A stretch of 64,000 nucleotides of DNA. Origin: Xylographa opegraphella (lineage: Eukaryota). Positions 1 through 17,279 of the stretch are shown here, one piece after another. Positions within the stretch are counted from its first letter, which is position 1; each line of letters opens with the position of its first letter. The position numbers and the translations under genes were made by a program. The notes under the pieces were generated by a model, which was given only the letters and a program-made list of their open reading frames with translations, ran no database searches and was not told where the DNA came from. Location of the stretch: positions 186,001-250,000 of the forward strand of contig JALDZX010000022.1 of NCBI GenBank assembly GCA_022813865.1, written 5' to 3'.

Positions 1-1460
1 GGTTCTCAGCGCACTAAATGGCACGGCGTTCTTGTTGTGAAGTAGATATTTCTCACCTAGGTTCTTCTTCTCTTCTTCTACTCCTCTTCCTCAGCAACCA
101 TTCGTATGTTCCATATCTTGCAGAAAACCAGACAATCAGACATGCAATCACTGGCTTTGGTATATCATAGCTGGTGACCAAACATCATACAATCATTGGC
201 TCTCGTACTTTCAATCACCCCCTTTGACCAGTCTTGACTGATCGTAACGAACCTGAGATCTTACATTCAAAATAACACAAAGATTTGAGCTCATGCACAT
301 TACCTATCAAGTACCGACAGCTTTGCATACTTAGAGAAGTGTTCATACTGACAGGCATCACCTTCCGTACTGTATCAGCTCGTTCAACCAGTGGTGACGA
401 ACCTGAGATCCTGCATCCAAACCAACACCAAGTACTCAGGTCTCGCTCATCATCTTGCAAGTGCGGACAGCATTGCATACCTAGGGACCGTTCATAACTA
501 CAGGCATCAGCTTTCGTACTTGCAGAACCTCCTTCGACCAGTCGTGACACACCTGAGATCGTGTGATCAAATATACACATTCAGTAACTGGTTTCTGTGC
601 AACATCCTGATATTGACTGTATTGCATACTTTGTGTGGCTGTCGATCACCTACCAGCATCAGCTCTTGCACTCCCAGTCACACCTTTCGACCAGGCATAA
701 CGCATCGAAGATCGTGCATTCAACCAGAAGTATTCAGCATTTAGCTTTCGTACATCATCCTCAGGGACCGACAGCATTGCATACTTCTTTCAACAGTCGA
801 TCATACCTACCTACGTTAGCTCTCATACACTTACGTCTTTCAACAGTCGATCATACCTACCTACATTAGCTCTCATACACTCAGCTGCCCCTTTCGATCA
901 GTCATAACATATCTGTCATCCTGCATCAACCAGATACAGAACCTGCTTCCACACGTTATCTTCCTGTACTAGCTTTATTGCTGGTCACGTCTACCAGTCG
1001 AACATACCTTCGAACATTGACTCTTGTGCTTTCAGTCACGTCCTTCGACACTGCATCACACATACAGCATTCAGCATTGGAAGAACATCTTCAGGTACCA
1101 AGCGTATTGCGTATCACGTCTAGCAATCAACCATACCTACAATTATTAGCTTCTGTGCTTTCAACCACTTCCTTTTGAGAAGTAACACACCTTGAATCCT
1201 GCGTTCAACCACATTTACAGCATTCAGCTGTTGGACATTATCTTCCGGTACCAACTGTATTGCACACAGTATTAGGAATCAACCATACCTACAAGCATTA
1301 GCTATCGTGCTTCAACTCACCTCCAGCATCCATCTGCACCATACATTACGACTTGCAGACCAGCATACACTTCATTGTTAGCACCCTAGCTTGTCTTCTG
1401 GAACAACTCGTACTTACCTCAAGTTCTTGAACTATCTGCTCACTCAGGCTCTCGTATTTC
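1..1460 (-). repeat. Degenerate ~150-bp tandem array rich in minus-strand splice signals (putative multi-intron non-coding transcript or 5' leader)
   Basis: ACCTGAGATC recurs at 251, 401 and 551, with diverged copies near 700, 910 and 1190. The minus strand repeatedly shows GTATG/GTGTGT/GTTCGT donors, GCTAA/GCTGA branch points and YAG acceptors. No convincing long ORF. Confidence 0.7.
786..881. repeat. Near-perfect direct duplication, 50-bp period
   Basis: TCTTTCAACAGTCGATCATACCTACCTAC(G/A)TTAGCTCTCATACACT at 786-831 and 836-881. Confidence 0.95.
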
Positions 1461-1489
1461 AACAAGAAAATTAATTCGTCAGTGATACC

Positions 1490-1510
1490 TTTTTATACAT
1501 AAATATATAT
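1490..1510. promoter_or_regulatory. Overlapping TATA-like elements on both strands
   Basis: TATAAAAA on minus (1490-1497) and ATAAATATATAT on plus, about 50 bp upstream of the ATG at 1561. Confidence 0.45.
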
Positions 1511-1560
1511 GAAGCCAAACTAACACGTCTTCGTAAGACAACACCGTTCACTTTACCACA

Positions 1561-2095
1561 ATGGCACGCCACAAGTACAACGGGGTGCGCGACTCGGTCT
1601 TGGGAATCAAGATCAAGACCGGGTTGCAGCCCCGCCCAGCGGCGGACGCCTCGGATGCAGAGTGGGGGTACTATGAATTGGAGGTGAGTATCAAAGACAA
1701 CCAAAGCATTGGCACAGTTGCTGATTATTCAAAGCGGAAGCGCCATGAGGCAAGATTGGTAAGTTCTTATTGGATAGAATTCAATCCGATATGGACAGAT
1801 ATCAGAGATCACGTGTGTGCTAACTTAACAACAGGCGCGGGAGGAGAAGGAGGAGAAGGAATGGGAGAGGAAGCGGCTGGCGAACGAGAAGGCCTCAGCG
1901 GCCAAGACGGACGACAAGGAGAAGAGGAAGCGGCGTCGCCCCTGGTATGCTTGAAAATTCAACATTTGGGAATAAGATCGCTAACATGTTCGCAGCTTCG
2001 AATGCAGGCGTCGCCATATCAAATGTGACAGGGCCAAACAATGCGGCCAATGCCGCAAGAGAAAGCGTTATATCTGCGAATACCCTGGGGAATGA
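1561..2095 (+). CDS. Small (118 aa) protein with a C-terminal Zn(II)2Cys6 binuclear cluster
   Basis: Exons 1561-1683, 1735-1758, 1835-1944 and 1996-2095, with donors GTGAGT/GTAAGT/GTATGC and branch points. The spliced product ends KRKRRRPCFECRRRHIKCDRAKQCGQCRKRKRYICEYPGE* (C-x2-C-x6-C-x5-C-x2-C-x7-C). Confidence 0.85.
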
Positions 2096-2211
2096 TTGGG
2101 CAGCGGGTTGGGGAAGGGGGAGGGAGGGGTTGGAGGGGGGGATGGGGGAGGGGCCAACCCTCGCTTTTCGAGAAAGGCGCCGGCGGGGCCCATCGGGGCC
2201 CAAATGAAATC

Positions 2212-2865
2212 TCATTTGAAAGCGAAGACTGTCTGCTCCAATGGCTCCCGTGCAGTCTCCCAGGCAAGCCAATCACTCCTCGTTGTCCTACCCCCACAGT
2301 CAGCCCCGACCAATTTTTCCTTCTTTGAAGAAATACATACGGCAGCAACCCCATACCATTGACCTTCCACACCCCAAGCGCTAGCGCTACCAGATTCATC
2401 AGCACATATACCCCCTTCACCATCCATAGCTTTCCCCGTGTCCCATCGGTCTCATATCTGGTGAAGACTTGGTTTGTCTGCAATAATGCCTGCAGCGGAT
2501 TCTTGAAGAGCATAAAGACCATCATAATACTGAATATTTGCAGGCTGTTACCAGACATATACATCATGATGGCATTCATAGGTATTGCTTTAGCAGGGGC
2601 AAGAGCGATCTCCCATGATTTCTTGAGCTTCAACGTGTCTGTTTCGGACGTGGTTGGGGCCTTTCTAACTTGCTCTTTGGCAGCTGCAGAACGCTCAAGG
2701 ACTGTTAGCCGGACACCTCTGAGGCTGACAAAGGGGGTTTACTTTGGCAGTTGCTAAAGAGGAGTACCCTGGAGGATCTTGGATGTTGCCTGACTTGGGT
2801 TTGGAGGCGGGTGGAGTGCTAAGGTCGATGACCCATCGTGGAGGGGGGGGCGGTCCGGACTCCAT
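2212..2865 (-). CDS. EMC4: ER membrane protein complex subunit 4
   Basis: LKLKKSWEIALAPAKAIPMNAIMMYMSGNSLQIFSIMMV...MGLLP|TTRSDWLAWE. Two introns; the exact boundaries of intron 1 are ambiguous. Confidence 0.93.
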
Positions 2866-3290
2866 AGTTTCACGCTCTTCAGACACACATTTGACAGCGT
2901 ACACACGAGTCTGAATGGTTATGTACGGTTAAAAGAGTTCCGTGATGTTCACCATCTGACATGCAGCAGCATCTGTTCCGTCTTGGCGTGTCGCGCTAAG
3001 ATCTACCAGAGCCGCTAATGGGCGGAAGGCGATGTGGCATATTGTTCACATCAACCAGATTGCTTAGATACCTATTTTGCCACGAATTTTACATGAGCTG
3101 TATGCATCTGCCGGTCGAGATATCGACGTAGGCATCACAAAGAGCCGAGTATAAACTGCCAAAGTAGATCGATTTCCAGCAATCATGTTTGTCATAAGCT
3201 AAGGAACACGACTAGAGGTTTTCAAGAATGCTACCCCAGGTATATAGCGGGTCGAAATAAGTACGATCTACAGAAACACATCCGGCCCAA

Positions 3291-4451
3291 CTAGCCTCCA
3301 AACGACAGCACATTACGGCGAACCTTGGGGGGATTGCAACCTTGGATCCTCGGCCCTTTACATGTTGGCAGGTTCTGCTTCCGTGTAGGTAGCTTAGTGT
3401 CTTGTACCTTCTTCGCCGTCGCACCTGTGTTTTTCACTGCCAATCCTATCAGCTCGTTGATCAGCTTACTTTGAAGATCTGCCATCGCCTTGCCGGATAC
3501 TCCCGCGATCTGCTGTGTTCCAGGCTTCATGTTGAGAGCATCTCTTACTTTATCTCCGAACTTCTCAGCCTTGAGGCCCAGCTTCGCGATCTTTGCAATG
3601 TCTTCGCCAGCTTTAGCAGCCGTCTCTCCAAGCTTGATGCCGACAGCTAGCACCTCACCGCCACCCGGGAATGCAATAGTGAGCACAGACATGATCTCTC
3701 CGAAGATCTGCAAGAACTTCATGAAGCCAGCCTTGGCCTTTTCTGCGGCCTTCTGTTCGGCAGACTTCGCCTTTCCATCTTTATTGAATTCGGCGTTCTG
3801 ATCGTCGGTTGACTTCTGCTTGAAGTCGTCTAGGGCCTTCATATCCGTTCGCTGTTCTGAATACGCTGCATACTTTTTCTTCCATTCACCGTTCTTGTCG
3901 GCGGTCTTTTTAGCATTGAGTGCGCTTTGAAGCTTGTTATTAGTTTTGCGATCATTGGGATGGGATTTCATGTATTCTGTGGCTTGCATGATTTGATCGT
4001 CACCCCACTTTTCCCCGGCATTAGCTGAGTCAATCGAAGTAGTGGCTTTCGTGTGAGCGTCGTTGATGATGTTCTCAGAGCTGTTTTTGTCCTTCTGCTG
4101 TTGTGAGTTGGCACGATCGACTGCCTCCTTGTTTTTCTGATCCTGTGAATGTGTTGCGACGTTAATTCTTACTGGTCTAGCGAGAGCATTTGCTGCGCGT
4201 CGCAGGAGAAATTCATTCATTGATGCATATTCGGATTTCGTCTTGTGGATTGAAACCGCGAACAACGCTCTTTCTCGGCTGTCAAGAATACTAGGGATTG
4301 CAAAATGCCCAACATCTCCTTTGAAGCCAAGACCACCCACTGGATTGCTTGCCACATTCAATAGAAGGAGAGAACCTAATGCTAGAAGTGTCTGAGCAGA
4401 GTCAGAAGACTCCGACTACCATTCGCAACGATTACATACCGAGAATTGCAT
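3291..4451 (-). CDS. Predicted secreted Lys/Ala-rich protein with an internal hydrophobic hairpin
   Basis: A 12-nt exon 4440-4451 (MQFS) and intron 4392-4439 (GTATGT..CTGAC..CAG) restore the signal peptide MQFSTLLALGSLLLLNVAS in frame with the 356-aa ORF. Confidence 0.8.
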
Positions 4452-6240: not shown

Positions 6241-8758
6241 ATGAGTTCTGGAGGAGATGCGAAGCTCTTCGCGCGGGTGCGTCTCTCCTGTTGTCGAACT
6301 ACAACTGTCCACTGCTCTTCCTACACATCTCACTCTGCCGGATCGGGGGATACTGCAGCGATGTGGAGTCCCTTTCCATATGCAATTCCAAATCAGTGGT
6401 GCACCTCTCAATACCTTCTCACTCGCACTTCCCCATGTTCCTACCGTTTTCGCCCGTCATTTTGTCCCCTGGTAGCACAGTCAGCTCACAATGGTTCACG
6501 GTCTCACAGGGCAAAGTTGCCGAGCTGCGCGTCGAGCTTGCGAGCGGTGGGAAGAAGGATAAGAACAACTCGGCGAAGAAGATAGCTTTGAAAAAGATAG
6601 TGGCAAATATGACGATGAGCAACAATGATATGGTCGCATTGTTCCCCGATATCATCAACTGCATGCACATATCTAGTCTGGAGATCAAGAAGATGTAGGC
6701 TGGCATACCGCGTCAACCAAGCGTTGGTTGTCAACTAGGCTAATCTTGCGAAAGGTGCTTCCTTTTCTTGGTCAATTATGCCAGGATAAAGCCGGAAATC
6801 GCCCACAAAGCTCTTCCCATCCTCCTTCAAGTATGCAGGTTTCTCTACGTACAGCGAGCGTCCTGACTGGTGGTGCAGGATCTGGAGGATAGCAACCCTC
6901 TCGTTCGAGCTCTGGCATTGAGGACGCTCTCTTATATTCATGTCCGAGAATTCGTACAAGCCACCGTAAGCCCTTTAAGGAGCCTAGTCAGAGATCAAGA
7001 TCCATATGTGCGGAAAACCGCAGCGATATGTGTGGCTAAGCTCTACGACCACGACCGGTTACTGGTAGAGTCCTCGGACCTGATAGATAGGCTTAACGCT
7101 ATGTTAAGAGATGAAAATCCCACAGTGGTCGCAAGTGCTCTGGCCGCCTTGATGGACATCTGGGAAAGAAGCGAATCTATCAGACTTACAATCGACTATG
7201 CCAGTGCTTCGAAAATTGTGCAGATATTACCTGACTGTTCAGAGTAAGCGCGGTCGTGTGCATCTTTCACAGCCATACTGACGAGGACTTAGATGGGGAC
7301 AAACCTACATTCTGGAGGCGCTCATGTCGTATGTGCCACAGGATACAGGAGAAGCGCTGCTGCTCGCCGAACGCATATGTCCCCGCCTGTCGCATTCAAA
7401 CTCCGCTGTTGTTCTCACATGCATAAGAGTCGTCCTCTATCTCATGAACTATATCGCCGACGACAAGCAAATATCCTCTCTGTGCCGCAAACTGTCGCCG
7501 CCATTGGTTACATTACTTGCGAAAGGGGCCGAGGTCCAATACTTGGCGTTGAGAAACGCTCTCTTGATCCTGCAGCGAAGACCCGAGGTACTGAGAAACG
7601 ACATTCGAGTATTTTTTTGCAAATACAACGACCCTATATACGTGAAGGTTACTAAACTAGAATTGATATTTATGTTGGCAACAGAAGCCAATATCAGAGA
7701 AGTTCTGACGGAACTGAAGGAGTGAGGATCACTTAGATACCACCGCCACAATTTGCGGAACGCTAATCGCATGCAGGTACGCAACCGAAATCGACGTCCA
7801 CTTTGTCCGAAAGTCCGTCCGAGCGATCGGCAAACTGGCAATCAAGATCGAATCGTCCGCCGAGGACTGCATCGGCTGCCTCCTAGAGCTCGTGGCCACC
7901 AAAGTATCCTACATCGTCCAAGAAGCAACGGTCGTCATCCGCAACATCTTCCGCAAGTACCCGAACCGCTACGAATCCATCATCTCGACCCTCTGCGAGA
8001 ACCTCGACTCCCTCGACGAACCCGAGGCCAAGGCCGCCATGATCTGGGTGATCGGCCAGTACGCGGACCGGATCGACAACTCGGACGTCCTGCTTGACGA
8101 CTTCCTCTACTCCTTCGCCGACGAGCCGGTCGAGGTCCAACTCGCCCTCCTCACCGCCACCGTCAAACTCTTCATCCAGCGGCCCACCAAGGGCCAAGAG
8201 CTAGTCCCCAAAGTCCTCAAGTGGGCCACCGAGCTCACCGACAACCCGGACCTGCGCGACCGCGGCTACATGTACTGGCGCCTGCTGTCGTCCGACCCGG
8301 GCACGGCCAAGGCCGTCGTCATGGGCGAGAAGCCGGCCATCACGGCCGAGGCCGAGACGCTCGACCCCGCCACCCTCGAGGAGATGTGCCTCAACGTCGG
8401 CACCCTCGCCACCGTCTACCTCAAGCCCGTCCAGCACGTCTTCCGTTCCGCCCGCCCGCGCCGGCTGCTCGACAGCCCCGCCCTGCAGAAGCAACACCTA
8501 CCCGCCCGCGACGCTGACGCCTCCGCTGCTCCGCCCAACGGCACCTCCTCCGCCGCCGCCGATGCAGCGGACCTCTACTTCGCAGGCGTCGTCGCTGGCC
8601 CGCGGCTGGCGGCTATGCACCTCGGCGGTGGCGGCGGCGGCAGCGACGATGACTTCGCTGCGCCGGGCGAGAGTCGCTACGTTGTGAGCCAGAGCCATCC
8701 GTCGGAGGTGTATCAGCCGCAGGTCGGGAGCGGGAATGGGGATCTGCTGGACTTGTGA
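6241..8758 (+). CDS. APL1: AP-2 adaptor complex beta subunit
   Basis: [22 protein letters not shown]...[58 protein letters not shown]; multi-exon. The N-terminus matches the fungal AP-2 beta type rather than AP-1 beta. Confidence 0.92.
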
Positions 8759-9070
8759 AGGCCGGGGAGGGGGTTTGGGGGATGGGGGAAGGGGGGATGG
8801 GGTAAAGGGTATGTGTGGGGAGAATGTGTTTGTGTGCGTGTGGGTTGGAGGTCTCGTATATTATACACAGACATGGACATGGACGCGGACATATGGGTTT
8901 GCATCATTAAGTATCTCGTCATCCGGTGGCTTCTGCTCCGACATGTTGAGTGGGTGAGTGGGTTAATGAGTGAGTGAGCTAATCCTCGCAACATTTGCCC
9001 ATGAACAAGAAGCTCAAGGTAGCTGGCGTGGAATAATCCCGAGGGCCTCGACGAGGTAAGGCAGTCTACC

Positions 9071-9135
9071 TAGTCCAATCCAGTACCGTCCAGTCTAGGT
9101 TAGTCCAGTCTAGGGTAGTCTAGGGTAGTCTAGTC
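9071..9135. repeat. Low-complexity (TAGTC/TAGGG) repeat between convergent genes
   Basis: ...cagtctaggttagtccagtctagggtagtctagggtagtctagtc. Confidence 0.6.
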
Positions 9136-9423
9136 AAGGGCAGGAGGGGGCCAAAGACGCCGCCGAGCATTTGTCTTTCCGAAACCTTTTCCCATGCCGT
9201 AGGTAGTCGTCACGCTTCCGGAGGTGATCAAAGGCACGCGGTAAATCGGTATTCATTCAGCTATGTACATCCCACGCACACTTGCTCCCCCCCCCCGGGC
9301 CACAATCGCTATTGACGAACCATACATATGCACTTGCACGGACCCTCCCAGCCATCTAGGCATCGTAATCGCTCTTCGTGAGCAACATACACCGACTCGC
9401 ACACGCTACTCAAGCCGCACGCT

Positions 9424-11564
9424 CTAGTGCATCACCACGGCGACGTGGTCGTCCATGAAGCTGTTGATATCGCCCAGGAAGCACGACGCAATGATGCTCA
9501 CGCACCCAAAGGCAATGCTCGTGAGGTAGACGTACTTGTAGCTCTCGGCATAGGCCATCTGGCCCGCGGCGACCACCATGGCGTAGGCCGTCTCGTTGCC
9601 GGCGATGCCGGGAATCAGTTTGAGATCATCCAGCAGCGAAGCGCTCGTGAAGGTGATGGCTTCACCGATGTAGGTGGCGTTCGTGATGCCCAGCTCCAGC
9701 TCCATGGCGCCGCCGATGTAGTAGAGGGCGTTGGCGACGAACTTGTTGACGAAGACGTTGTAGTAGATGCAATACCCGATGCTGCCGCCGATGACGCGGA
9801 TGGCCAGGGTGAGCGCTGCGATGGTCGCAATCAGATCCTGGGTGGCGAGTCAGTAACCTTTCCCATCATGCAAGGAAGCTCGACTTACATCGGGGCAGAT
9901 GATGGTGGTGATGATCGACGCTGGAACCACGAGACCTCCAATGCCAAGGCCAGCGAGGACCAGGATACCCCAAAGCTGATACAGGTTGTCGACACGGCCA
10001 ACGGCAAGGGCCCCGGTGCCTGTTATCGTAAGCTCTACGATCGAGAAGATACGGGAGAGGGGTCCACGTACCGGCCGTCATGAGTACGGACGATATGATC
10101 ATCAGTTCCTTGTTATGACCACGGAAGACACTCAATAGCCACAGAACAATACAGGCGCCGGCCAAGATGCTGAAGCCCGGCGGAATGCCTCTGATCCCAA
10201 CGCCGATCGGATCCTGTCCGTAGACATTGAACGCTTGCGTGGGCCAGAACATGACGAGGGAGAAGAAGTTGGCACCCGAGATGAAGGTGATGACGAGAGT
10301 GAGTGCAAGCGTCCGAGGAGCTTGCTTCAGGCGGCTGGGAAACATGGGAAACTTGGCAAATTTGATCTCCCAGACCACAAAAGCGACAAGGAAGAAGAAA
10401 CCGATGAAGAGAGGCGCCAAAACGTGAGCGGACGACCAGGGGTACTGTGACGTGTGTGAGCGGTTGCGGATGGAAGCCGTCCGTCGATCATACCTGATAA
10501 CCTCCCCACTGCATCGCACACGTAAACAGGAGCATCCCGACAATGCTCAGGAATCCTCCGACGAAATCGATCTGGCCGATGATTTCCTTCCTCGACAGGC
10601 CTGACGAGTTGACCCTGGGAGGGGGGAAGTAAAAGATGGCGGTCATGAGCAAACCGACGGCAGCCCAGATGCCGCACAGCAAGCCGCAATACCTCCAGCC
10701 GGAATTGGAGGCAATGAGTTGACCCCATAGGACGGATGGAGCAAACGGGAGGATGGTGAAGATCAAGATAGCTACATAGGTACCTCGCTTCCGGGTAGGA
10801 GCCAGCTCGGCCGTTGCAGCAAGAGCGGTGAGCTCGTTGATACCGGCACCGATGCCCGCGAGCGTCATGCCACCTGAGGGACATCAGCGTCAGTAGAGCA
10901 GAAGGGTGGAGAGATGACTAGGAAGCGCACAGATAAAGATATTCATCGTATGGGCGGTGGACGATACAATCATTCCGAGCACAATGAAGGAAGCGCCAAT
11001 CAAAGCAACGTATCGACGTCCAATGAGATCCGAGAGCGATCCCACAAACGGGCAGACGGCTGCCAGTGCGAGGAGATTGGCCAAGACCTTGTGCACGGAA
11101 TCAGTGAACGGTCGTCGAATGGTACCGCACTCGAGACTTACAAACCAGATCCAGCGATCGGCACCGCCAATATCGCGGTAGATATAAGGTGGGATGCCGC
11201 CGAAGACGTAGATGGGGATTTGCGAGCCCGTCCAGAGGAAGGCCATGGCAACCAGGGACATGAAACGATGGATACTCATCTGATAGAGCAGCTGTCAGTG
11301 AAGTTCATCTGGAGATTCGATCGCGGCCCCCGACGTACCGGGGGCTCATGGTCGTGGTCCTCATCGTCGCCTGCCCGGGTCAGCATCGACTTATTGCAGT
11401 AGACATCTGTATTCTTCCGTACCGTAAGTCCTCAGGCCATCCTTCTCGTAGCAGTTCGGATGCCCTGGCACACGCTCGTTCGTGTGGATCTCCTGAATGT
11501 GTGCTCCAATCTTCTCATCACGCGGCGAAGAGGCCGAGGCCGTCGAGTCTTCCGATTCGGGCAT
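9424..11564 (-). CDS. MFS transporter, fungal trichothecene efflux pump (TRI12)-like family
   Basis: MPESEDS...YEKDGLRTYG|DDEDHDHEPP|MSIHRFMSLVAMAFLWTGSQIP, GSLSDLIGRRY, ELAPTRKRG; many TM helices; ends DDHVAVVMH*. Confidence 0.9.
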
Positions 11565-15130: not shown

Positions 15131-15440
15131 CCGGGCTGTGGACGGCCTGGGGCGGGTTCCGAAAAGTCCAGCCTCCCTCCCTCTCTATCTGGAACCAGCA
15201 TATCTGATCTAATGGTACTGTTGGTCCCACAAAGCTCAATGGCTCCTGCAAGGTTTTCACACCCGCATGTATACACGTACCCCTACACGCACCCTTGTCT
15301 CCCGATCATGGATATATAAGAAAAACAGCCCCAGCAGAACCCACGCAGCACCAACTCCCCACGCCCACATCTCCAGCATCGATATTTCCCAGAACAAATG
15401 CATTCCTCCCACCCCCTATCGCCTCCCACTAACCCGAACC

Positions 15441-15583
15441 NNNNNNNNNNNNNNNNNNNNNNNNNNNNNNNNNNNNNNNNNNNNNNNNNNNNNNNNNNNN
15501 NNNNNNNNNNNNNNNNNNNNNNNNNNNNNNNNNNNNNNNNNNNNNNNNNNNNNNNNNNNNNNNNNNNNNNNNNNNNNNNNNNN
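15441..15583. other. Assembly gap (N run)
   Basis: Run of N followed by a poly-C tract. Confidence 1.
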
Positions 15584-15908
15584 NCCCCCCCCCCTTCCGG
15601 CCAACGCACACCCCTTTCCTATCCGGGCCTCCTGTCGCTCCGCGGATGTACATGCTCCACTAGGATATACCTGACGTGGTCCGAACAGACCGCGATCGAG
15701 AAGCGTATTTTCCTCTTCTTTCTTTCCTTTTGGCAAAAAGGGGGTGTGACCACCCCCCCTCCGCTGCCGCGTACGCGTTTTGTTCGACGAAGAACAGCTA
15801 TTCACTGGGACGAGAACCGAGGGTTAGCTATAAGAGGTACTCAAAGCATCGCTGCTGACGATAAAGCTCGATTCGATTCGATTCCGATCGAGACTCACAC
15901 ACATTGGA

Positions 15909-16158
15909 CATTTCATTTACCATCATTTCATTTACCATCATTTCATTTACCATCATTTCATTTACCATCATTNNNNNNNNNNNCATTTCATTTACCATCA
16001 TTTCATTTACCATCATTTCATTTACCATCATTTCATTTACCATCATTTCATTTACCATCATTTCATTTACCATCATTTCATTTACCATCATTTCATTTAC
16101 CATCATTTCATTTACCATCATTTCATTTACCATCATTTCATTTACCATCATTTCATTT
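15909..16158. repeat. 15-bp perfect minisatellite (CATTTCATTTACCAT)n, about 16 copies, with an internal 10-N gap
   Basis: Directly visible; true copy number is uncertain because of the gap at 15973-15982. Confidence 0.97.
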
Positions 16159-17279
16159 GACACCGAGACATCCATGTTCCCCATACGCCAACCACCTCGG
16201 CGGTGATAACCCACAACAAAACGCTCAAGCAGCCTTATCTCCCAACTGACCCCGCAGCCAGCCAGCCAGCCCCCCTCCTTGCCCCGCAAGTCCCGCAGAC
16301 ACGGAGCGACGAAGATCTCGCCCGTCCAACGCCCTCTTGCCCGTCCCCGCCGCGGACCCATGGATCCAGAGCAGCATAACGACGACGGAGAGGGATCGTG
16401 CGGCACGCGTGTGTGACGGTCAGCTTTCCCCGCACTCTTTCCGAAAGGGCAGGTCGGGAGCCCCGAAGTGAGCAAGGGGAAGAAAAGTACCAAGACCGAG
16501 GGGCCCACGTACCGGACCCAGCACATCGAACACCACAGACGGCATCCCGATGTGGGGATAGATCGTATTAGCGGAGTCCGGAGATGGCTACGAAGAGACC
16601 GAAAAAAAGGGACGACGTTCGGACTCGAAAAAGGACGACGGAGAAGCCAGGAGAGCCATGGCGGCGGTTGGAAGGCAGGGTTGGGGAGGAGAATAGAATG
16701 GAACACGACGCCGGTTGCGCATTGTTATGGGGAAGTAGCTGGGAGGGTTGGGGCGCTTGGGGCGGTTGGATATAAGGCAGCTACGCATCAACGATCTAAA
16801 CGCGTTTGCTCTACATACGATCTACCATGAGCTTCGATTGCAGCGCCCACCACACCCACGACGGTGCTAAATCCCAACTAATTCCCCAATACCCCTTGCT
16901 CATCATAAAACATCCACACCGCCAAGCGCCCCCCACCTCGCGCGCTTCCGCCCCTGCAGCTCTGCTCCAGAAAAACCCACAACCGCATTCATCTCCATGC
17001 GCTATTCTCTATCAACATAGCAGCAGTCTGCTCCCTGCAGCGTGAAGCCTGCGGCGCGGAAGCATCGCTCGCATAAGGCATGTATCAACTGGAGGAAGGA
17101 AGCGTGTTGTTGAATGGGGGAGGTAGTGAAAGGGATAGTGTGGATTGGATATGAATGGGGTGGATGGTAGGCTTTGGGGCGTGCTTAGGGTGGTAGGGAG
17201 TAACTTGCCGGGGGTCGCGTTGCTTGAGGTTTGGGGGTTTGTTGGAGTTCCGGGGGTGTGCTGTGGGTAGGGGGTAATG

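Follow-up and report, generated by a model that had tools for sequence, protein, structure and literature searches.

Ratchet points for recursive splicing are known from long introns of Drosophila and vertebrates (review PMC5126111). In the fission yeast S. pombe, a zero-length exon with recursive splicing has been described in a 336-nucleotide (nt) intron of SPNCRNA.445, a host of small nucleolar RNA (snoRNA), and splicing of zero-length exons has been reported for this yeast at two places (10.1101/226894). Tandem introns that each give a snoRNA are known from mammals, where SNORD115/116 are produced from SNHG14 (PMC11608373, PMC3413130), and Neurospora crassa has UHG-like non-coding hosts with one snoRNA per intron (PMC2780460). 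Three further systems concern the origin or the compound structure of introns: intron gain through tandem duplication of a segment that contains AGGT (PMC3265369, PMC4974935), the introner-like elements of fungi, which are scattered over different genes in hundreds of copies and for which stable folds are predicted (PMC3609843), and the stwintrons (spliceosomal twin introns) of Pezizomycotina (PMC9024468, PMC8469720). Here we analyze a stretch of 64,000 nt from Xylographa opegraphella (assembly GCA_022813865.1, contig JALDZX010000022.1, positions 186,001 to 250,000), hereafter the window, which carries at its left end a tandem array of intron-like units of about 150 nt on the minus strand. Our favored explanation, which we put forward tentatively, is that a tandemly duplicated intron is located in the non-coding beginning of a minus-strand transcript driven by a TATA box.

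The existence of a tandem unit of about 150 bp, first proposed in a sequence-only reading of this DNA, was confirmed by profile searches. On the minus strand, positions 1417-171 comprise seven full units of about 150 nt (U1 to U7), two partial units and a recent 50-bp duplicate. We ran a profile of U1-U7 only against both strands of the 64 kb, which returned seven full-unit matches (E-values from 5e-26 to 4e-40) and a partial match at 1323-1289 that corresponds to the last 35 nt of the unit (E 0.023). Weaker matches covered a fragment in the duplicate of 50 bp, at E 0.55, and positions 168-130, where the match is marginal (E 2.8). Outside the array, this profile found no match to the unit at E<=10 on either strand of the window, and a nine-segment profile agreed. 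A repeat-family search gave spacings of 129-207 nt, and cutting the sequence at these anchors yielded alignable units. The pairwise identity between U1-U7 is 53-70%, with neighboring units being the most similar. This divergence was too high for Tandem Repeats Finder (TRF) to recognize the ~150-nt units, and its sole call in the array was the 50-bp duplicate at 782-881, with 96% identity. The ratio of transitions to transversions among the units is 1.28. Repeat-induced point mutation was rejected as the source of the divergence, as its signature is absent from the array (TA/AT 0.84 and (CA+TG)/(AC+GT) 1.17, both within about 1.2 standard deviations of the window tiles). A dispersed element is likewise not indicated within the 64 kb, where the only copies are those of the array itself. 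Judged from the confinement of the profile matches to a single locus and from the level of identity between the units, the array is old and local and amounts to about 7.5 tandem units.

The array is dense in intron-like signals, which are confined to its minus strand. When introns were searched for with the pattern GT[AG][ACT]GN, 20-140 nt, CT[AG]A[CT], 2-18 nt, [CT]AG, 17 candidates were found on the minus strand of positions 1-1440 (11.8 per kb), compared to 1.09 per kb on the remaining minus strand and 0.70 per kb on the plus strand, and none was found on the plus strand of the array. Five of the nine matches to YAGGTATG in the window fall in the array, and whole-window shuffles give 2.95. 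Acceptors that run directly into the next donor, as described in the earlier reading, are present as TAG/GTATG at 1289/1288, 1137/1136, 857/856 and 807/806 (the slash marks the boundary), and we observed an additional, weaker AAG/GTATG at 1008/1007. At these five junctions a predicted 3' splice site directly abuts a predicted 5' splice site, which is the arrangement that characterizes recursive splice sites. The head of the array is also as previously described: TATAAAAA is located at 1497-1490 on the minus strand, and 80 nt downstream of it GAG/GTAAGT places the G of a donor at position 1417. GTATG-type donors and a spacing of about 9-17 nt between branch site and acceptor also occur in the likely real introns of the window, for which we used a reference set of 14 (12 hand-picked from 45 candidates that bridge open reading frames (ORFs), and 2 read directly).

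Since the units are copies of one another, this enrichment of signals could come from a single founder. The extent to which the individual signals have been retained in the diverged units is therefore informative in its own right. The first donor GTATG (alignment columns 1-5) is intact in five of the seven units, which is equalled by only 3 of 133 five-column blocks. The second donor (columns 23-27), the branch site CTRAT and the terminal TAG are each intact in four units. A full outer set, consisting of either donor plus the branch site and the acceptor, is intact in four of the seven units (U1, U3, U4 and U5). At least one GTATG donor is present in every unit, namely the first in U1-U3, the second in U5-U6 and both in U4 and U7. 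For comparison, non-overlapping column blocks of matching shapes were picked at random 20,000 times and scored against the consensus used for the signals. As many as four intact units resulted from 15 of these picks, and a further run with three alignments gave 17 for each of them (P 0.00075-0.00085). A star model with a uniform rate, in which the units diverge from the consensus by 0.19-0.36, predicts 0.31 intact units and gives a probability of 8e-5 for four or more. The outer splice signals are retained more often than chance block sets of the same alignment. To this extent (four of seven full sets, P of about 0.0008), the earlier claim that the splice motifs are better conserved than the rest of the repeat is borne out; it does not extend to the acceptor taken alone or to the internal sites discussed below, and the best conserved block of the repeat is not a splice signal.

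The retention data bear directly on the possibility that the array is a silent minisatellite, in which a fragment that contains or resembles an intron was amplified in intergenic or promoter DNA with neither transcription nor splicing of the minus strand. Such an origin would be consistent with a single founder unit as the source of all signals, with an overall conservation that is fairly even along the unit, with a C-poor composition that differs from that of the likely real introns, and with the position of the array directly upstream of a plus-strand gene at 1561, where it could be promoter or spacer DNA. It does not readily account for four full sets where, at 19-36% divergence from the consensus, about 0.3 in seven would be expected, nor for the observation that units which lost the first donor keep the second and vice versa. 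In addition, the consensus donor GAG/GTAAGT, which is unrelated to the repeat, marks the very head of the array and lies 80 nt past the TATA box. We consider a silent minisatellite unlikely.

A recent event in the array is visible as a direct duplicate, 782-831 and 832-881, which is 96% identical and spans one AG/GT junction. The two differences between the copies include CTAAT versus CTAAC at the branch site, and the consensus allows either form. As a result of the duplication there is a complete intron-like segment of 50 nt at 856-807, with GTATGA, GCTAAC and TAG. Both copies include AG/GT and the segment between them is bounded by a donor and an acceptor, as in intron gain by tandem duplication across AGGT. 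At the level of sequence, the duplicate shows how the array can grow while remaining removable.

If the array is a duplicated intron in a non-coding leader, as we favor, its structure can be explained as follows. A segment of about 150 nt, extending from a GTATG 5' splice site to GCTRAT plus 9 nt plus TAG, would have been duplicated in head-to-tail orientation, at least seven times, within the non-coding initial portion of a transcript made by RNA polymerase II, which would start just past 1497-1490 and run leftwards. Exon 1 would end at 1418, and U0 to U4 would follow contiguously with no exons between them. The exons between units would have zero length at five junctions, because the copies meet there at AG/GT, and 17-20 nt at three others, where pieces of 20, 17 and 17 nt (649-630, 497-481 and 347-331) would remain because the first of two donors has decayed. 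These short pieces would be followed by a purine-rich exon of 114 nt (170-57) and then by a further intron, the donor of which was previously placed near 57 and is actually at 56. The units may be removed one by one, in which case each ligation would rebuild a donor from the exon end and the next GTATG (recursive splicing). Removal in larger pieces is equally possible, and the mature RNA would be identical either way. The predicted product has about 200 nt in the window (211 nt if the start is near 1460) and its ORFs do not exceed 21 amino acids (aa), so that the tiny spliced product envisaged in the sequence-only reading is reproduced in silico, including its zero-length junctions. As the same product would result from any route, the copy number would be invisible in the product and the array would be free to grow, by slippage or unequal exchange, with the mini-intron U3b as a recent case. 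The retained complete sets suggest that a long unspliceable stretch is selected against where ordinary introns measure about 48-77 nt. Transcription, splicing, the order of splicing and any role of the RNA are features that we infer from the sequence. The individual features are listed in Table 1.

Table 1. Positions of the array units and associated features in the window. The outer set consists of a donor, the branch site and the acceptor.
Feature	Coordinates	Strand	Basis
TATAAAAA, candidate TATA box for the minus-strand transcript	1490..1497	minus	read directly; function presumed
Presumed first exon, with GAG at its end before the first donor	1418..1460	minus	position between TATA box and donor 1417; start coordinate guessed
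U0, first intron-like segment, 129 nt: GTAAGT ... GCTAAT ... TGTAG; internal GCTAAC at 1381	1289..1417	minus	sequence reading
Part of U0 to which homology with the repeat unit is limited (last 35 nt)	1323-1289	minus	profile E 0.023
U1, 152 nt: GTATGG ... GCTAAT ... TGTAG, outer set complete; internal CAG / GATTCAAG / GTGTGT; abuts U0 and U2 with zero exon between	1137..1288	minus	profile E 9e-35; sequence and alignment
U2, 129 nt: GTATGG donor, weak branch site TCAAT, AAG acceptor; central deletion of 27 alignment columns in alignment A2	1008..1136	minus	profile E 5e-26; alignment
U3, 151 nt: GTATGT ... GCTAAT ... GTAG, outer set complete	857..1007	minus	profile and alignment
U3b, 50-nt segment from the 50-bp duplication: GTATGA donor, GCTAAC branch site, TAG acceptor	807..856	minus	TRF, repeat family, pattern-search candidate
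U4, 157 nt: two GTATG donors (806, 784), GCTGAT, GTAG; outer set complete	650..806	minus	profile E 4e-40
C-box-like ATGATGT in U4	758	minus	box C/D scan
U5, 152 nt: first donor lost, second donor GTATGC at 629, GCTGAT, TGTAG	498..649	minus	sequence and alignment
20-nt exon left over in U5 if spliced	649-630	minus	sequence and alignment
U6: first donor lost, GTATGC at 480, weak branch site GTGAT, CAG acceptor ending at 348; sole perfect C box of the array (ATGATGA at 453), CTGA at 378, no terminal stem	348..497	minus	sequence and alignment; box C/D scan
17-nt exon left over in U6 if spliced	497-481	minus	sequence and alignment
U7: GTATGC donor at 330, CCAAT instead of a branch site; own acceptor lost, next CAG ends at 171	171..347	minus	profile E 2e-33; sequence and alignment
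17-nt exon left over in U7 if spliced	347-331	minus	sequence and alignment
Presumed 114-nt exon and degenerate last unit U8; purine-rich, three short upstream ORFs	57..170	minus	sequence; profile E 2.8
GTGAGA donor at 56-51, start of a further intron-like stretch running off the left end of the window	1..56	minus	read directly

Several observations weigh against the favored explanation. The retention test was devised post hoc on seven related copies, and it measures retention rather than use. The acceptor on its own is not above average (intact in four of seven units, versus a mean of 3.1 for three-column blocks), and the branch or acceptor signals of U2, U6 and U7 are weak or missing. The units, at 129-160 nt, exceed the 14 hand-picked likely real introns (48-77 nt) in length by a factor of two to three, and the minus strand of the array (171-1417) is poor in C (15.6% C and 29% G), compared to 23% C in these introns. 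Furthermore, GCAAT, the best conserved block of the repeat, matches no known splice signal. It is present in six of the seven units and GCAA in all seven (columns 27-31 of alignment A2; positions 1262-1258 in U1). This block is located directly 3' of the second donor, and it is kept even in U2 and U3, which lost that donor. Lastly, the AT-rich patch of 25 nt around TATAAAAA contains TATATAT on the plus strand as well. It is separated from the ATG at 1561 by about 50 nt and may serve only the plus-strand gene.

Compared to the known systems, the array combines the architecture of a snoRNA host without the cargo and, judged by its sequence, the junction type of a recursive site repeated five times. 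As in known recursive sites, the 3' splice site abuts the 5' splice site so that removal of the upstream part would rebuild a donor, and the S. pombe case resembles the proposed transcript in that the RNA is non-coding and the fungus has short introns. Known recursive sites, however, are one or a few points in a single long or moderately long intron of unique sequence, whereas here there are five, about 150 nt apart, which arise by repetition of the unit and at which stepwise removal is a prediction. The resemblance to snoRNA hosts lies in a non-coding host with many consecutive introns, in short meaningless exons and in a unit composed of intron plus exon, all of which are in silico features of the array. 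Unlike in these hosts, where box C/D is the conserved part, the boxes of the array are not conserved and match no snoRNA family, and the exons have shrunk to 0-20 nt. Duplication of an AGGT-containing segment is matched by the 782-881 duplicate, which spans AG/GT and leaves behind a segment that carries a donor, a branch site and an acceptor of its own. The described cases concern one intron within a coding exon, whereas in the array an already intronic unit would have been multiplied in a predicted non-coding RNA. The units resemble introner-like elements in being related in sequence and longer than the regular introns of the genome (129-160 versus 48-77 nt in the 14 hand-picked introns), but they are arranged in tandem at one locus with no other copies in the 64 kb, and they lack the fold stability of introner-like elements (z -1.14 to +0.98). 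With stwintrons the array has in common the need for consecutive splicing reactions, the occurrence in a filamentous ascomycete and the existence of sequence-related copies. In a stwintron the internal intron splits a splice signal of the external one, whereas in the array complete introns would lie side by side with no split signal. The sequence-only reading had not recognized the array as a described element. Close precedents do exist in the zero-length exons of S. pombe and the tandem introns of non-coding hosts, and in the open-access literature that was searched we found no account of a fungal tandem intron array without cargo. The publications found on X. opegraphella in this literature are taxonomic or ecological, judged by title and abstract, and the search gave nothing on genome features of the species.

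The precedent of snoRNA hosts, together with the earlier suggestion that the array is a host for small RNAs, made a search for cargo relevant. An Infernal search of the whole 64-kb window with Rfam (cmscan) gave no match at the gathering score. At E<=10, positions 1-3000 returned five rows at chance level, and within U1-U7 there were merely chance-level rows for long non-coding RNA (lncRNA) and GOLLD families. The best row was snoR66-like at 87-155, outside the full units, with 19.8 bits where the gathering score is 43 (E=1). No transfer RNA or transfer-messenger RNA was detected by a scan, and the Rfam scan revealed no ribosomal DNA within the window. A box C/D scan marked three places in the array (in U4, U6 and U8) with five C-D pairs, none of which has a terminal stem of at least 4 bp; the chance background of such pairs is about 1 per kb (62 on the minus strand of the 64 kb). 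In the aligned C columns ATGATG is present in two of the seven units and in the aligned D columns CTGA is present in two, with a third CTGA, that of U6, being off register. Only U6 has both boxes. With each box present in two of seven units, the boxes are less conserved than the donor. The units also lack a conserved or stable fold. The RNAalifold consensus of the seven units amounts to -0.42 kcal/mol and includes a helix of six pairs between columns 35-40 and the branch-site columns. One pair of this helix is changed on both sides in three units, probably as the result of one event between subfamilies. In none of nine segments is the fold more stable than in its dinucleotide shuffles (200 per segment, z-scores between -1.14 and +0.98).

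These results leave it improbable that the units were once introns with a box C/D snoRNA, of which one or two would still be so and most would now be pseudogenes. A few features do point in that direction. In the majority consensus, a C-like GATGATGT follows the donor by about 47 nt and a CTGA precedes the acceptor by about 25 nt, the two lying about 90 nt apart, and the donor-to-C distance is within the 41-60 nt reported for intronic snoRNAs of N. crassa (PMC2780460). U6 has a perfect ATGATGA with a CTGA 79 nt apart, there is the weak snoR66-like match, and the zero-length exon of S. pombe sits in a snoRNA host (10.1101/226894). Against this stand the absence of Rfam matches at the gathering score in the window, the sparse and poorly retained boxes without terminal stems, and the lack of a conserved or stable fold.

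Coding capacity was rejected as an explanation for the array. The largest ORFs in the array have 121 aa on the minus strand and 117 aa on the plus strand, and the former has no homologue among proteins of 66-212 residues. The unit lengths differ by non-multiples of 3, so that the units are out of frame with one another, and the ORFs of the predicted product are limited to the 21 aa mentioned above.

In its original form, the sequence-only reading assumed two introns per unit, with an 8-nt micro-exon between them. The 8-mers themselves are present, GATCTCAG in three units and GATTCAAG in one, and a layout of two ordinary-sized introns (about 70 and 55 nt) with a string of 8-mers as the product would have the advantage that both halves fit the typical intron lengths here (48-77 nt). 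U1 and U6 carry all sites required for this layout, and the pattern-search candidates at 1137-1190 and 498-552 correspond to the second half. However, the internal acceptor is CAG in only three of the seven units, and its G column is among the least conserved (identity 0.1). The internal donor starts with GT in four units and is of the rare GTGTGT or GTTCGT type, and both internal sites are intact in no units other than U1 and U6. The region of these sites is deleted in U2, and the first half has no consensus CTRAY branch site. The sequence data do not support the 8-nt micro-exon as a conserved feature, and we regard two introns per unit as quite improbable.

We consider it very improbable that the array is repeated regulatory DNA, whose repeats would provide binding sites acting on the plus-strand gene at 1561 or in a bidirectional promoter, because the array spans 1.3 kb with no focus of conservation on one short site per unit and because the strand-specific order and the excess retention of splice-like signals would be left unexplained, even though the array ends about 120 nt from the ATG of this gene and GCAAT, its best conserved block, is not a splice signal.

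The surroundings of the array are those of a fungal genome, with genes that have short GT...CTRAY...YAG introns. Pfam families found in the window are EMC4 (2019-2633, minus strand), PIG-N, Vps36, SAC3/GANP, a PX-PB1 protein and an MFE-2 hydratase. The array fills the upstream space of the small plus-strand gene at 1561-1953, which encodes a basic, lineage-restricted protein. The sole relative of this protein in the database is a hypothetical protein of 105 aa from the lichen-forming Lecanoromycete X. opegraphella itself (99% identity), the model of which treats the in-frame 51 nt at 1684-1734 as coding despite an intron-like GTGAGT, CTGAT and AAG. The left end of the window falls inside the presumed minus-strand transcript, which may be an lncRNA or the leader of a gene that lies farther to the left. 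The 1561-1953 gene and EMC4 converge at 1953-2212, and since only about 260 nt separate their likely stop codons, their 3' ends probably overlap. Elsewhere in the window, we observed an ORF of 356 aa at 3291-4361 (minus strand) that is rich in K, A and E and without a Pfam family. The GC-richest 2-kb tile is 8001-10000 (0.61, compared to about 0.50 overall), with short tandem repeats at 9088-9140. A 15-bp tandem repeat at 15909-16158 (16.7 copies, 90% matches) lies within the plus-strand ORF 15398-16249 and would encode a repeat of five residues.

What the array means for the biology of introns depends on whether it is expressed. If it is not transcribed, it would be an old minisatellite of little consequence. 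We also consider, as possible though rather doubtful, that the array is an intron concatemer, that is, an lncRNA or 5' leader that uses at least five consecutive zero-length exons and from which about 1.3 kb would be removed recursively, with the introns having multiplied in tandem free of cargo and U3b being a newborn intron. If this is true, intron proliferation would have been caught at one locus, and no fungus would be known with a longer series of ratchet points. If the array is spliced, as the favored explanation of a duplicated intron in a non-coding leader assumes, it would reveal a simple, transposon-free route for intron multiplication. Tandem intron copies would then be invisible in the mature RNA, so that their number can drift, and each new AG/GT junction would be a ready-made recursive splice site. 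Splicing of zero-length exons would thereby be extended from fission yeast to a filamentous, lichen-forming ascomycete, and from a single site to a run of such sites.

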